DNA of 64,000 bases from Eubacteriales bacterium. Lineage in GTDB: Bacteria; Bacillota; Clostridia; Oscillospirales; CAG-382. The stretch spans positions 48,705 through 112,704 of the forward strand of contig JAZOTA010000045.1 in assembly GCA_045657425.1 (NCBI GenBank), given 5' to 3'. Positions 3,845 through 64,000 of this stretch are shown one piece after another. The first letter of the stretch is position 1. Each line of letters opens with the position of its first letter. Position numbers and translations under genes: made by a program. The notes under the pieces were generated by a model. The model made no database searches, was not told the DNA's origin, and saw nothing but the letters and a program-made list of their open reading frames with translations.

Positions 3845-3859
3845 ATGCCTTCTTAATAA

Positions 3860-5149
3860 TTATTTGCTGTTTTTCTTGGTGTAATATCCGTCGGGGAGAT
3901 ATTTGTTGGGGTTAACATAGTTACCGCCAAGATTTGTGTAGGTGTTGGTATCGATTACACCGAAGTGGAGGTGGTAGCCTGTCGAGCGTCCGGTTGTGCC
4001 GACGTAGCCGATAACCTGTCCGGCTTTGACTGCATCGCCTGCTTTTACGTGGTAAACGGGCTTGCCGTTTTGTCCCTTATAGGGCAAATTGCCGTTTTTA
4101 CCGCTGTTATCCAAGTGTGCGTAAAGCGAGGAAATGCCGTCGCCGTGGTAAACGATGATGCATTCGCCGTAGCCGCCGTTCCAGGATGCGCGTGTAACGA
4201 TGCCGTCCTTAACTGCAATTATGGGAGTACCGCGCGAGCAGGCAATGTCGATGCCCTTGTGGTATTCGGTTGTCGGCTTTCCGAAGGGGTCGCCTCTCCA
4301 ACCGTATTGGCTGGTTACTCGGTAGCTCGAGGTCTTGACGGGCCAAATGAATGCGGCAGTAGAGCTGTAATACTTTTTGCGCTCCTCTTCAAGCTTTTTA
4401 ATCTTTTCCTTGATCTCAACAAGCTTTGCGTTCTTTTCCTTGTATTGCTCGGAAAGCTCGCCGGAGTTCAAATTGAGCTCTGCCGCAATTGTTTCGAATT
4501 CCTTCTTTTTCTTGTTCATTTCGAGCTTTGCGCGGTTCAATTCAACAAGATAATCGTTGTATTTTTCCTGCGTTTCCGCAAGCTCGATTTCGTTTGCTTC
4601 AAGGTCGGAAATCGAAACCTCGATATCCTTCAAAAGCATATTTGCCGCGTTCATTATATCGTTATAATGGTCGCGTCTTGTGAGAAAGTCCGAAAAATTA
4701 TCCGAAGAAAAGAGAAGCTCGAACGAATTTACGTCGCTGTTTTCATATATGAACTGCATGAGCTTTTTATACATCGCCATGCGGTATTCATAATCCTCGC
4801 GGATAATTGCGATTTCGCTTATGACTTGGGCGCGCTTGAGGTCGTAGGATTCCATCGTGCCGTTGCGGAGAATTATCTCTGCTTCAAGCGCTTCAATCTC
4901 GGCTTGATATTGCACCAAAAGCTCCGCCGTCTGTCCCGATTTGCCTTCCAATTCGGCAATGTTTTTTGTTATAGCGGCAAGCTCTGCTTGGACGTTTGCG
5001 AGCTCGGATTTATATGCCTTGAGCTCGTTTTCGATATCGAAGATGGTTTTTGCCTCTGCGATTTCGGAGGGTTCGCTTACGGATAAAGCGCCAAGCACGA
5101 GAATCATGCAAAGAACTATCGCAAACGATCTCTTTAAAATTCTTGACAT
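3860..5149 (-). CDS. M23 (LytM) peptidase with a long N-terminal coiled coil (EnvC-like)
   Basis: 429 aa: signal/TM, about 250 aa of heptad-rich sequence, then an M23 core (..HKGIDIA..GYGECIIVYHG..SLYAHL..GRSTGYHLHFGV..). AAGGAG RBS. Confidence 0.88.
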   Translation of the reverse strand: MSRILKRSFAIVLCMILVLGALSVSEPSEIAEAKTIFDIENELKAYKSELANVQAELAAITKNIAELEGKSGQTAELLVQYQAEIEALEAEIILRNGTMESYDLKRAQVISEIAIIREDYEYRMAMYKKLMQFIYENSDVNSFELLFSSDNFSDFLTRRDHYNDIMNAANMLLKDIEVSISDLEANEIELAETQEKYNDYLVELNRAKLEMNKKKKEFETIAAELNLNSGELSEQYKEKNAKLVEIKEKIKKLEEERKKYYSSTAAFIWPVKTSSYRVTSQYGWRGDPFGKPTTEYHKGIDIACSRGTPIIAVKDGIVTRASWNGGYGECIIVYHGDGISSLYAHLDNSGKNGNLPYKGQNGKPVYHVKAGDAVKAGQVIGYVGTTGRSTGYHLHFGVIDTNTYTNLGGNYVNPNKYLPDGYYTKKNSK

Positions 5150-60552: not shown

Positions 60553-60641
60553 GCCGGAGTGGCGGAATTGGCAGACGCCCTGGACTTAAAATCCAGTGAG
60601 GTTTACCCCTCGTACCGGTTCGAGCCCGGTTTCCGGCACCA
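60553..60641 (+). tRNA. tRNA-Leu (anticodon UAA), class II with a long variable arm; CCA encoded
   Basis: Folded by hand. Acceptor GCCGGAG/TTCCGGC, D arm GCG..CGC, anticodon stem CTGGA/TCCAG with loop CTTAAAA, variable arm GAGG..CCTC, T arm ACCGG-TTCGAGC-CCGGT. Confidence 0.92.
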
Positions 60642-60676
60642 TTTATGTAATCAATCAAATTTAATAAATTCAATAT

Positions 60677-60752
<76 letters not shown>

Positions 60753-60754
60753 AA

Positions 60755-60995
60755 AAGAAAACCACCCAATCGGGTGGTTTTTCTTTTTGTTTTTGACGCA
60801 AGGCGTTGCAATGCGTCTTTTTGGGTTATGAGACCGACGAGCGGAGCTCGTTGGGAAAGCACTCCGAGCGCATTCGGGGAATGAGAAAGCGAGGAAGTGC
60901 TTTCCGCAGCGGTCGAAAAAATCAAGTGAGCCACGCGAACGTTAGATTTTTTCGGGTTACCGCAAGGCGGCTTTTTAAGGCGAAGCCATAAAAAG
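60755..60995. other. 241-bp non-coding insert bounded by the 44-bp tRNA-derived direct repeats; contains hairpin-repeat copy C
   Basis: It holds nested inverted repeats: GACGCA..TGCGTC, GGAAAGCACT..AGTGCTTTCC, and A/T-arm CGAAAAAATC..GATTTTTTCG (60914-54) around ..GCCACGCGAACG... No credible ORF. Confidence 0.5.
60758..60788 (+). terminator. Intrinsic terminator after the tRNA pair
   Basis: AAAACCACCC / GGGTGGTTTT stem with loop AATC, then a T-run. Confidence 0.8.
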
Positions 60996-61039
60996 ATAAC
61001 CCGGAGGTCGCAGGTTCAAGTCCTGTCTCCGCAACCAAA
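60996..61039 (+). repeat. Perfect 44-bp direct repeat of tRNA-fMet positions 60711-60754 (anticodon loop through 3' end +3 nt); att-like displaced tRNA 3' half
   Basis: ATAACCCGGAGGTCGCAGGTTCAAGTCCTGTCTCCGCAACCAAA occurs identically at both places. The second copy has no 5' half and is embedded in a long hairpin (61031-61078). Confidence 0.9.
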
Positions 61040-61141
61040 GCAAGGGACACCATTGGGTGTCCCTTTTGCTTTGGTTGCGCGGTAGGCTCTTACTCTGCGA
61101 CCGAAGGGCGAATAACTGTAATATTGTTTACAGCATATTCC

Positions 61142-61169
61142 TTGACTTTTTTTGCTGTTGTTGTATAAT
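61142..61169 (+). promoter_or_regulatory. Sigma-A promoter of the GH43 gene
   Basis: TTGACT (61142-47), a 16-nt spacer, then TATAAT (61164-69). Confidence 0.6.
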
Positions 61170-61190
61170 CTATTTAAAGGAAGTGAACTT

Positions 61191-62108
61191 ATGAAATTAA
61201 TATTCAATGAAACACAATCCACTCAACCCGATCCGTTTATATTTGAGGATAACGGAACCTTTTACCTTTATGTAACTGCGTATGCAGGAGTTGAAGCATA
61301 CGAAAGCAAAGCTCTTACAGGAACATGGATTTATAAAGGAACTGTAACCGCGTTTGCAGATGCACACGATTTTTGGGCGCCTTCGGTTATAAAGCTCGAA
61401 GACAAATATTACATGTATGTATCCTGTGTCGCAAATAATAATTTTCAATATATGCATGTAGCCTGTGCTGATTCACCTTTAGGCCCATTCAAAAATGAAA
61501 AGTGCCTTTATGACCAATTCTCTATTGACTCACATATGGTAAAGACAAATGTCGGTCTTTTTCTTTGGTATGCTAAAAACAATCTTGAACACGATCTTGT
61601 GGGCACAAGAATTTATGTAGATAGATTTATAGACCCATATACCCCCGAAAACAACCCCAAGGAAGTGCTTTTGCCCGAATTTGATGAAGAAAAATTCACT
61701 CCTCAATGCACAGAGGAAAGAGATTGGTACACCTTAGAGGGACCATTCTGGTTTAAAGAGGGTGATTGGCAATATCTTATGTATAGTGCAGGATGTTATC
61801 AAGATAACACATATCACATTGGTTATGCCATTGCAAAAACAGATGAACAAGACCTTAAAAAAGTAGACTTTATAAAGGTTAAAAACGGCAACAAATTTTC
61901 ACCCGTAATCATTAAAAACTCCTTTGAGGAGGGCACCGGTCATCATAGTGTAATAAAGGTTGATAACGAATACTACGCCATCTACCACGCCAGAGATTAC
62001 CAAGGCACAACCTCAACCGAGTATGTTGAAAGAAGAACAGCACGAATTTGCCGTCTTTCGGTAAATGACGGTGTTATTACAGCCGAACGCTTTGAAAATC
62101 ATATATAA
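61191..62108 (+). CDS. Glycoside hydrolase family 43 (beta-xylosidase / alpha-L-arabinofuranosidase-like)
   Basis: 305 aa. ..DPFIFEDNGTFYLY.., ..FWAPSVIKLEDKYYMYVS.. and ..SIDSHM..EGPFWFKEGDWQYLMYS.. match the GH43 catalytic Asp/Asp/Glu contexts. The start is set at MKLIF. Confidence 0.85.
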   Translation: MKLIFNETQSTQPDPFIFEDNGTFYLYVTAYAGVEAYESKALTGTWIYKGTVTAFADAHDFWAPSVIKLEDKYYMYVSCVANNNFQYMHVACADSPLGPFKNEKCLYDQFSIDSHMVKTNVGLFLWYAKNNLEHDLVGTRIYVDRFIDPYTPENNPKEVLLPEFDEEKFTPQCTEERDWYTLEGPFWFKEGDWQYLMYSAGCYQDNTYHIGYAIAKTDEQDLKKVDFIKVKNGNKFSPVIIKNSFEEGTGHHSVIKVDNEYYAIYHARDYQGTTSTEYVERRTARICRLSVNDGVITAERFENHI

Positions 62109-62140
62109 TAAAAGTGATATCTAAATCGGTGCGACGTGCC

Positions 62141-62177
62141 AAAAAATCAAGCAACTAACGGTTGCTTGATTTTTTTA
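62141..62177. terminator. Strong bidirectional intrinsic terminator after GH43
   Basis: 15-bp stem AAAAAATCAAGCAAC / GTTGCTTGATTTTTT with loop TAACG. Confidence 0.85.
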
Positions 62178-62179
62178 TC

Positions 62180-62347
62180 CATTGCGAAAGCAATGTTATA
62201 TCATCGCCGTTAGGCGTATATCATCACGCGTAGCGTGTATATCATCAGCCGTGGGCTGTAGCTTTCGCAATGATGATATACAACACTCCGTGTTGATGAT
62301 ATGCAATTTCTTCGAAATTGATGATATACAACGGCTTTGCCGTTGAT
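62180..62347. repeat. Array of six 9-bp repeats (3x TATATCATC direct, then 3x GATGATATA/G inverted), each followed by a different mini-hairpin
   Basis: TATATCATC at 62197, 62217 and 62238. The reverse complement is at 62272, 62295 (GATGATATG) and 62320. Hairpins: CATTGC-GAAA-GCAATG, GCC-GTTA-GGC, ACGC-GTA-GCGT, AGCC-GTG-GGCT, AACAC-TCC-GTGTT, CAATTTC-TTC-GAAATTG, AACGGC-TTT-GCCGTT. Confidence 0.85.
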
Positions 62348-62460
62348 TCGGTCTGAAACCTTTTTGTCTTGTGGCAAGCTTTTCCTCTGCTTCATCAAGG
62401 CAAAAGCGGCGGATTTCGTATCGTTCAAGGAATAATTTTACAAAATAACGTTGTTTTTTT

Positions 62461-62691
62461 GTTATAATTATGATATAATAATTGCAAGTAAATAGCGACT
62501 TAAGCTTTGCCGTAAGGCAAATGGGAAACATACTGCAAAACTGACAGACTTGCGGTATCTTCCGGCACGATGCACTTTTGGTCGCAGACTCGTCAAACGA
62601 TGGGATAGTTGTCATCTTTTTTGGCGTCTGCGCTTGTGTGCAGATGCTTTTTTTGTCCTTTTTGCTAATATTTGAAAAGGGGGAAACCTAT
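62461..62691 (+). promoter_or_regulatory. Extended -10 promoter plus a roughly 215-nt leader with two tandem intrinsic terminators upstream of the MATE gene (candidate riboswitch/attenuator)
   Basis: TGTTATAAT at 62460-68. GNRA hairpin TTGCC-GTAA-GGCAA at about 62504-62518. Terminator 1 at 62599-62622 (5-bp stem + T6). Terminator 2 at 62624-62655 (GCGTCTGC/GCAGATGC + T7). The RBS AAGGGGG and ATG at 62692 follow. Confidence 0.45.
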
Positions 62692-64000
62692 ATGTTTTCC
62701 AAAATCAAACTGTCACTCAGCCGTATCAATTACAAGCTTTTCGCAGCGCTTCTCGTCCTTGGACTTGCACCGACTGTCTACACCACGGTTCGTGTATTCT
62801 TCCTCGGTCAATTACCGGGAGAATGGTCATTCTCCATCGCCGGGCAGCTCTCGTGGGTGAACCTGCTCTATGAGATCATGAACGAGGCAATTATTCTGCC
62901 GTTGTTCTATTTTATCGGCAAGGTCAAAGATGACAAAAACAAGTTTTCAAACCGTGTGCGGACGGGTATGCTTATCTCCCTTTGCGTGTATGCTCTTCTT
63001 TCTGCCGTTGTTATTATTTTTGCAGAGCCAATGCTTTCGCTGATGGCAACCGACACAAGCATTATCGAGGCATCTGCGTCCTACATCAGAATTGAGAGTA
63101 TAGCAAATACATTCTCCATACTTACACAGTTTGCCCTTGTTGCTCTTGTCACCGTAAACAAGAGTAAATACTTATATGCACTCACAGGTGCAAGACTTGT
63201 GCTTTGTCTTGTGTCGGATACCTTCCTTGTTTCCTCTATGCCCGTATCGGCAAACCTCGGAGTCAATGGAATCGGATATTCCAACATCATTGTAAACGCC
63301 ATTCTGCTTGCCGTTTCTCTTATCTTTCTTGCCAAGGAAGAAATCAAGGTGTTTGCCAAGGCAAGACTTGATTTTGTTTGGACGAAGGAATTTATCAAGG
63401 TTGGTGGTGTTTCCGGTATTGAATCACTTGTTCGCAACGTTGCCTATATGGTTATGATTGCCCGTATGGTAAACGTTGTGGGTGAGCAAGGCACTTACTG
63501 GGTAGCAAATAATTTCATTTGGGGATGGCTCCTTTTGCCAGTGCTTCAATTGGGTGAGTTGATTAAGCAGGAGGTGGCTGCCGATAGGGAAAACATTCGT
63601 CGTAACTCCCTCGGCTATTTTGGTATCACGGCAATTATTTCTGCACTCTGGCTTATAAGCATTCCCGTGTGGAAGCCGTTTATGACAAACGTGCTTGGTT
63701 TCACCGACGTAGATAAGCTCTTCGGACTTGTAATGCTCCTTGTAGGCTTCTATGTACTGTACGCCGTGCAGAATGTGTTTGATTCCACCTTTTACGGACT
63801 CGGCAAAACAAACTATATGCTCTTTGAGTCGGTTGTGACGAACACGATTTATTACGGCATCGCATTCATTCTTTACATAACAAATATATGGACTCCTACG
63901 CTCACGGGAATCGCACTGCTTTTCGGTATCGGAAATGCCTTTGACAGTATAGTTTCTCTTGTGGCGTATGCATTCCTGCTGAAAAAAGAGAAAATCAATA
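62692..64000 (+). CDS. MATE family efflux transporter (3' end beyond the window)
   Basis: Not in the ORF track because no stop codon is reached. My own translation from ATG 62692 stays open to the window end: MFSKIKLSLSRINYKLFAALLVLGLAPTVYTTVRVFFLGQL..IESLVRNVAYMVMIARMVN... It is polytopic, with bipartite MATE-like repeats. Confidence 0.75.
   Translation, partial: MFSKIKLSLSRINYKLFAALLVLGLAPTVYTTVRVFFLGQLPGEWSFSIAGQLSWVNLLYEIMNEAIILPLFYFIGKVKDDKNKFSNRVRTGMLISLCVYALLSAVVIIFAEPMLSLMATDTSIIEASASYIRIESIANTFSILTQFALVALVTVNKSKYLYALTGARLVLCLVSDTFLVSSMPVSANLGVNGIGYSNIIVNAILLAVSLIFLAKEEIKVFAKARLDFVWTKEFIKVGGVSGIESLVRNVAYMVMIARMVNVVGEQGTYWVANNFIWGWLLLPVLQLGELIKQEVAADRENIRRNSLGYFGITAIISALWLISIPVWKPFMTNVLGFTDVDKLFGLVMLLVGFYVLYAVQNVFDSTFYGLGKTNYMLFESVVTNTIYYGIAFILYITNIWTPTLTGIALLFGIGNAFDSIVSLVAYAFLLKKEKIN

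Follow-up and report, generated by a model that had tools for sequence, protein, structure and literature searches.

The closest described relative of the array reported here is the Gut-1 RNA motif (Rfam RF01706), which was described by Weinberg et al. in 2010 and classed as likely RNA (PMC2864571). Like the array, Gut-1 is built of short GC hairpins in tandem whose sequence is free, with a fixed spacer between them that is approximately 8–10 nt long and ends in AUAC (GUGAAAUAC in Gut-1, GAUGAUAUAC here), and both derive from gut Clostridia-type DNA. The Rfam scan suggested in the preliminary description placed no family on the array at the gathering threshold or at E ≤ 10; the best weak Rfam match of the array is to Gut-1, at 62193–62266 on the minus strand, with 23.1 bits and E = 0.047 (threshold 50). 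In one related locus, L121, a genuine Gut-1 match (53.9 bits, threshold 50) lies approximately 90 nt from a ATATCATC array, and Gut-1 is therefore regarded as a sister family.

The array represents one member of a family of unannotated intergenic repeats, which are dispersed and occur in more than 100 species of gut Clostridia. The explanation that we favour, though with modest confidence, is that it works in cis as a boundary element whose single strands are read from either side and probably bound by protein. Literature searches for the 9-mer repeat, Gut-1 or tandem hairpins found nothing relevant.

The array in the window

The window, meaning the whole 64-kb stretch of DNA that was analysed, contains a single array of this kind, with no second one found elsewhere along its length. 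On the plus strand, positions 62177–62348 read as ATCC, an opening hairpin, three spacer-hairpin units, a centre, three further units and TTGATT, with a tRNA relic and a terminator directly before them:

62117–62140, plus strand: tRNA 3′-end-like relic of approximately 24 nt, GATATCTAAATCGGTGCGACGTGCC, which ends in CCA when the A at 62141 is counted
62141–62176, both strands: two-way intrinsic terminator with A-run, 15-bp stem, 5-nt loop and T-run; its arms (62141–62155 and 62161–62175) are 100% complementary
62177–62195, plus strand: element start ATCC and end hairpin X′ (CATTGC-GAAA-GCAATG), at a position conserved in the family
62196–62258, structured strand plus: terminator-side half-array, three times (T/G)TATATCATC and a mini-hairpin, from the sequence and family mispairs
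62197, 62217 and 62238, plus strand: repeat TATATCATC, from a sequence scan
62258–62272, plus strand: centre, GTAGCTTTCGCAATG, in which 62261–62272 (GCTTTCGCAATG) complements the 5′ arm and loop of X′
62272–62345, structured strand minus: promoter-side half-array, three times GATGATAT(A/G)C and a mini-hairpin, the mirror of the first half, from the sequence and family mispairs
62272 and 62320, read on the plus strand: inverted repeat GATGATATA, from a sequence scan
62295, read on the plus strand: inverted repeat variant GATGATATG, from a sequence scan
62343–62348, plus strand: element end TTGATT, −35-like by the spacing of −10 boxes in the family

The three direct and three inverted 9-mers of the preliminary description are present and lie far beyond chance expectation: the exact 9-mer has five copies on the two strands of the window, every one of them inside the array, compared with a mean of 0.30 in dinucleotide-preserving shuffles, none of which (0/100) reached five. 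Its six spacer hairpins also read as first given; written out by half, they are CGCC-GTTA-GGCG, CACGC-GTA-GCGTG and CAGCC-GTG-GGCTG on the terminator side and CAACAC-TCC-GTGTTG, CAATTTC-TTC-GAAATTG and CAACGGC-TTT-GCCGTTG on the promoter side. The X′ hairpin proper occupies 62180–62195, and the observation that this opening hairpin recurs inverted at the centre holds for its first 12 nt, which are exactly complementary to 62261–62272. Positions 62176–62350 folded much more stably than shuffles on either strand, with z-scores of −8.5 (plus) and −7.0 (minus) for RNA, and of −7.4 (plus) and −8.2 (minus) for single-strand DNA.

The hairpin at 62141–62175, missed by a simple terminator scan probably because the A- and T-runs lengthen its stem, had been assigned to the GH43 gene as its terminator. 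It is a terminator but not only that, being two-way and a constant companion of the array. Three mechanically called ORFs cross the array (62196–62615 and 62210–62428 on the minus strand, 62182–62346 on the plus strand). Since unit spacing (19–25 nt) and unit number vary freely in the family, these are judged not to be coding, as had already been concluded from the single copy, and ORFs across such arrays should not be annotated.

In three distant MATE orthologue loci (L275, L279 and L301), tRNA-Leu(taa) and tRNA-Met lie approximately 110 nt upstream of the MATE gene, and because the tRNA-to-MATE gap is so short there, positions 60753–62470 of the window represent extra DNA relative to these loci. 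This extra 1.7 kb, made up of a scar, GH43, the tRNA relic, the terminator and the array, would sit at a tRNA hotspot (60553–62692). The 3′ end of tRNA-Met is directly repeated without mismatch over 44 nt (60711–60754 and 60996–61039, separated by 241 nt), and this repeat resembles an att scar left by an integrative element that has since decayed. A specific link of the array to GH43 was rejected, as GH43 homologues elsewhere have other neighbours, and a link to MATE was rejected as the element is missing from 80 MATE orthologue loci. The MATE gene is also preceded by a conserved structured leader of approximately 185 nt (62478–62662) with its own terminator (62623–62648). This leader is common to L250, L253, L254 and L255, shows compensatory changes in 13 of 41 predicted pairs and had no Rfam match at E ≤ 10, making it a riboswitch-like candidate.

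A family between terminators and promoters

Scanning one genome per species with the pattern ATATCATC-N9-17-ATATCATC-N9-17-ATATCATC gave at least 120 matches, and the hosts among the matches listed are nearly all MAGs of gut or rumen Clostridia (Acutalibacteraceae, Oscillospiraceae, Ruminococcus and Christensenellaceae). The members share a common plan, in which an intrinsic terminator with A-run and T-run is followed by ATCC, the end hairpin, several units in which GYATATCATC precedes a GC mini-hairpin, a centre whose sequence complements the end hairpin, several units in which a mini-hairpin precedes GATGATATRC, TTGATT and the next promoter. The convergent layout of three plus three units (+++---) recurs among family members as a conserved design, in agreement with the emphasis first placed on it, and is the commonest arrangement; 3+5, 4+2, 3+6, 12+4 and arrays running in one direction only also occur. 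Several loci carry two or three copies within 8 kb, so that the dispersed copies which the preliminary description had associated with a REP- or MITE-type repeat have largely been found.

Related DNA was also sought among mobile elements. Blastn searches with the array gave three 35-nt chance matches in Vibrio plasmids and nothing related in the plasmid collection, and no match in the phage collection. In viral contigs the three-copy pattern gave matches (at least the number listed) that are mostly coding tandem repeats, and the two-copy 9-mer pattern gave only chance or coding repeats. Three IMG/VR contigs among the matches listed (L356, L389 and L452) carry the same one-direction array of 5–6 units, which lies between genes in a regulatory region of phage-like character and has no tRNA close by.

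The position of the arrays is specific. Almost all family members have a terminator hairpin with an A-run and a T-run beside the array, and directly before this terminator lie tRNA genes (Gln, Tyr, Leu, Pro, Arg, Asn, Thr, Ala or Gly) or tmRNA, as identified by ARAGORN and Rfam, on the strand equivalent to the plus strand of the window; one copy follows 5S rRNA and a tRNA. CCA and an A-run precede the terminator in 31 of 40 oriented copies. In the window, the array follows GH43 and the tRNA 3′-end relic instead of an intact tRNA. The genes beyond the promoter-side end are usually co-directional and mutually unrelated, and for the latter reason a regulon or operator role was set aside. A −10 box stands exactly 17 nt 3′ of TTGATT in 6 of the 40 copies, compared with at most two at any other spacing, and more copies have a −10 box if a spacing of 16 nt or a weaker box is accepted; the window has none at the 17-nt spacing. 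As this flanking −10 motif is the promoter of the downstream gene, the element fills the gap between the terminator and the next promoter.

Hairpins, spacers and centre

Each hairpin was counted on the strand where its spacer reads G-YATATCAT-C, giving 208 distinct hairpins across the family. Their stems contain 1183 Watson-Crick pairs, 22 G·T pairs and 2 A·C pairs, with G·T wobble below 2%; the stems vary and covary, and the spacers are fixed. The pair counts come from anchored scripts, and a MAFFT alignment of 20 elements leaves the hairpin arms unaligned. These counts bear out the earlier proposal that selection acts on the hairpin structure and the 9-mer, not on the hairpin sequence. The pair closing the loop is C-G in 163 of 197 hairpins, and the loops are strongly biased, with 69 GNA against 2 TNC triloops and 33 GNNA against 1 TNNC tetraloops.

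The two halves of the element differ in a regular way. In 26 elements of the 3+3 layout, with mispairs counted by half in hairpins S1, S2 and A1–A3 (X′ and S3 left out), the terminator-side half on the plus strand has 9 G·T and 1 A·C mispairs and GAA, GTA or GCA loops, compared with no G·T and 4 A·C mispairs and TTC, TGC or TAC loops for the promoter-side half on the same strand. The T..C loops and A·C mispairs of the promoter-side half on the plus strand correspond to G..A loops and G·T mispairs on the minus strand. That the loops and the mispairs (G·T against A·C) are mirrored between the halves argues that their hairpins form on opposite strands. These substitution patterns show that selection maintains the hairpins as structures of single strands, on one DNA strand in the first half and on the other in the second. 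The G..A loop bias is not seen in the one-direction arrays.

C(GNA)G triloops are classic extra-stable DNA mini-hairpins, and RNA favours GNRA and UNCG tetraloops. This triloop preference, together with the rarity of wobble pairs, points rather to DNA, or to nascent strands formed from both sides, and argues against a single mature RNA.

The preliminary description had also envisaged one RNA in which the 9-mers fold into A/U-rich 9-bp helices, and this form of the structure is not supported. Where a spacer departs from consensus, its nested partner pairs with it in 23 of 75 cases (31%), compared with 54 of 160 (34%) for non-partners, and a frequent spacer variant, GTATCTCATC, is never compensated in the other half; spacer-spacer pairing between the halves was dropped for this lack of compensation. 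The numbers of hairpin units are moreover often unequal between the halves, which counts against a single RNA folded through its 9-mers. As far as this comparison can tell, the spacers are shown to be selected as sequence, not as pairing partners.

Three spacer classes are found, with cores ATC, GTA and GGA in a shared GTAT...ATC frame (as in GTAT-GTA-ATC and GTAT-GGA-ATC), and in composite ATC and GTA elements both halves of one element use one class. Arrays of three spacer classes (Gut-1, ATC and GGA) stand in succession in L121. Palindromes of the GTAGGG...CCCTAC type, with a REP-like GTAG head, flank arrays at approximately 4850–4900 and 4990–5030 in L121 and at approximately 6060–6090 in L167.

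The centre has a partner of its own. Within an element, it is exactly complementary to the terminator-side end hairpin (5′ arm and loop) over a median of 11 nt, compared with a median of 5 nt for the other end hairpin and 5 nt for end hairpins of other elements, and the complementarity occurs as at least six covarying sequence types. The resulting 11–13-bp pairing between centre and X′ would bracket the terminator-side half only, and it competes with the stem of X′ itself.

A putative boundary element and its relatives

A design in which the spacers are fixed, the hairpin sequences free and the halves structured on opposite strands points to a process by which single strands are read as they enter an intergenic gap from either side. 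In the proposed boundary element, the array would act in cis between an intrinsic terminator, normally that of a tRNA, tmRNA or rRNA operon, and the next promoter. Each of its units consists of a GC-rich mini-hairpin whose sequence is free, with a C-G closing pair and a G..A loop, followed by the fixed spacer GUAU-AUC-AUC, and each half has this form on the strand that runs 5′ to 3′ into the element. The single strands, whether DNA or nascent RNA, may be exposed by polymerases entering from either side, and the spacers held between the hairpins would then be putative binding sites for a factor supplied in trans. An element of this kind could set a stable-RNA gene under very strong transcription apart from its neighbour, as a polar boundary that works on both sides, with the TTGATT end probably doubling as the −35 box of the downstream gene in approximately one fifth of copies.

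Several observations fit this proposal poorly. A canonical terminator already adjoins the array, so that a back-up barrier seems redundant, and the spacer is not a U-tract. The pairing of centre and X′ in one half is left unexplained by a symmetric model, and the G..A loop bias is missing from the one-direction arrays.

The best candidate for the trans factor would be a four-helix-bundle protein of the PF05635 family, of the subfamily that matches the spacer class. When 455 ORFs within 2.5 kb of arrays at approximately 107 loci were clustered, the sole recurrent close neighbour was a protein of approximately 115 aa belonging to PF05635/TIGR02436 ('23S rRNA intervening-sequence protein', a four-helix bundle). 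Its gene is found in 10–12 loci (approximately 10% of copies), directly downstream of the promoter-side end of the array, and its promoter, as read from the sequence, uses the TTGATT of the array. The subfamilies sort with the type of array upstream:

MxKNYLLIYSEQLA...: ATC spacer arrays, at least nine loci (L129, L138, L143, L173, L175, L176, L234, L237 and L329)
MK(N/D)NPxMKY...: GTA spacer arrays, seven loci (L126, L221, L339/L341, L343, L345/L347 and L348 among them), five of the seven fetched independently via the protein alone
Third subfamily: inverted arrays of tandem heptamers TTCATTA/TTCACTA, with no hairpin-spacer units, in L182 and L196

The heptamer arrays (L182, approximately 3850–4080; L196, upstream of 2822) also stand just after tRNA terminators. 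Both main subfamilies show 82–96% identity across more than 100 cluster representatives. PADLOC gave no meaningful match for the four-helix-bundle protein, and the only homologue in the PDB is the uncharacterised 2RLD; Avd, an accessory protein of retroelements, is presumably related to the family as well. The class-matched linkage is a lead that the PF05635 protein may be the partner of the arrays; plain co-inheritance could give the same pattern, and the 64-kb window has no PF05635 gene.

A broader proposal, which we offer as speculation and regard as rather doubtful, is that PF05635 subfamilies bind hairpin-spacer arrays sequence-specifically, each recognising its own 3-nt core (ATC, GTA or others) on single-stranded DNA or RNA. 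Protein and arrays would then constitute an unrecognised system by which gut Clostridia mark their tRNA, tmRNA and rRNA genes at the downstream end, with Gut-1 as another member. PF05635, a large family, would gain a candidate nucleic-acid partner, and Gut-1, an orphan motif since 2010, would gain a genomic context along with the related arrays in more than 100 gut and rumen Clostridia species.

It is rather unlikely, though worth weighing, that the terminator and array, with or without the PF05635 gene, form a selfish non-autonomous repeat of the MITE or REP kind that lodges at the CCA ends of stable-RNA genes. That the mirrored halves are then subterminal recognition sites for an enzyme acting in trans, with the terminator and outward-facing −35 box making the insertion harmless, is judged no more probable. 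Signs of mobility are plentiful. Identical terminator-plus-array sequence adjoins different tRNAs in different species, and the strain pairs L329/L336 and L345/L347 share an identical unit with different DNA upstream, the break falling exactly at the CCA/A-run. A tandem duplication of the terminator-plus-array unit in L339 is missing from L341, and in some loci arrays and genes take turns (array, gene, array, gene). In the window, the relic, terminator and array are homologous to those of L241, where they lie upstream of the GH43 homologue instead of downstream. Unit number, centre/X′ type and terminator sequence differ at orthologous sites (the window and L241; L129 and L232), indicating fast turnover of units. 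The loci with several copies and the absence from 80 MATE orthologue loci point the same way, as do the many very short PF05635 contigs, which assembly-breaking repeats would give; contig breaks are to be expected at arrays in assemblies generally. Against such a repeat, no transposase or integrase recurs among the 455 neighbouring ORFs of the approximately 107 loci. Neither a target duplication nor terminal TG..CA was seen, the ATC...GAT(T) ends having no visible duplication although the halves are mirrored. Arrays also persist beside one and the same tRNA, as they do at tRNA-Leu(gag) in five species, and mobility leaves the upkeep of strand-defined hairpins unexplained.

An independent small RNA is unlikely. 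It would be transcribed from the minus strand, starting at approximately 62350–62400 and ending at the terminator (62175–62141), and, in an equally improbable elaboration, its hairpins would present the GAUGAUAU/AUAUCAUC spacers to a protein or RNA partner, with the centre/X′ helix as a conformational switch. The terminator has its T-run on the minus strand in nearly all copies, the centre/X′ complementarity covaries and is asymmetric as one functional strand predicts, and near-symmetric −10 boxes in the neighbouring promoter, of the sort known from bidirectional bacterial promoters, could drive divergent transcription into the array. Gut-1, moreover, was deemed likely RNA by its authors (PMC2864571). 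The family flanks, however, hold no consistent promoter for a dedicated transcript and are heterogeneous on the 5′ side, some copies have another terminator directly upstream, and the window shows no promoter-like site at 62350–62470 on the minus strand. A minus-strand RNA with its own −10 box was rejected, as the 'ATTATA' of the flank proved, when read on the opposite strand, to be part of the downstream gene's extended −10 box (TGnTATAAT), whose −35 box lies inside the array end. On one transcript, half of the hairpins would acquire A·C mispairs and UNC loops, and wobble pairs are very few.

An array of double-stranded sites, whether plasmid or phage iterons, a parC-type centromere or operators for a neighbouring regulator, as the preliminary description had favoured from the convergent direct and inverted 9-mers approximately two helical turns apart, is very improbable: in some family members promoters directly adjoin the promoter-side end, so that an operator-like action on the downstream gene is conceivable, but the locus is chromosomal, no rep, par or regulator gene is linked, the downstream genes are mutually unrelated, the plasmid and phage collections hold no similar DNA, the viral one-direction arrays amount to three contigs among the matches listed, and double-stranded sites need no strand-specific hairpin in every spacer. 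The iteron and centromere readings are largely refuted.

Returning to the boundary element, its features can be set beside those of described systems. An iteron unit of approximately 17–22 bp is kept as a double-stranded site, whereas the array keeps only 8–10 nt and the remainder of its unit is a free-sequence, strand-specific hairpin. Integron attC sites resemble the arrays in their variable sequence, conserved single-strand hairpins, short boundary words and strand specificity; they differ in being one long imperfect hairpin, where the array has many hairpins and uses both strands, and the arrays have no integrase or gene cassettes. The 23S rRNA intervening sequences that carry a PF05635 ORF are likewise small, associated with stable RNA, provided with inverted repeats and linked to the same protein family. 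The arrays, however, follow the terminator of a tRNA, tmRNA or 5S gene instead of lying inside an rRNA helix, the ORF is outside the inverted arrays, and most copies, including that of the window, have no ORF.

MITE-type repeats such as Correia, BOX and RUP share with the arrays a length of approximately 100–200 bp, an intergenic location, mirror-image ends and a modular unit number, as well as an outward-facing promoter element and terminator activity, which for the array are predicted from its sequence. The arrays differ in that no target duplication, strict terminal inverted repeat or cognate IS was found with them, and in their specific context at the CCA end of stable-RNA genes. The REP and BIME elements of enterobacteria are also short, dispersed, extragenic palindromes that form clusters with conserved linkers at operon ends and are thought to act on single strands or supercoiled DNA. 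Neighbour clustering revealed no RAYT-type transposase near the arrays, and where REP units alternate, those of the array are direct within each half. In REP the palindrome is conserved and has a GTAG head, whereas in the arrays the palindromes are free, with 208 distinct hairpins, and the linker is conserved. Gut-1 differs in its spacer word and in its UUCG-type loops, where triloops are found here, and its model is without mirrored halves, centre/X′ complementarity or coupling to terminators and tRNA genes, all of which are features of the array. The design is unusual in that the spacer is kept and the hairpin sequences are free, and in that each half has its structure on a different strand, beside the most heavily transcribed genes.
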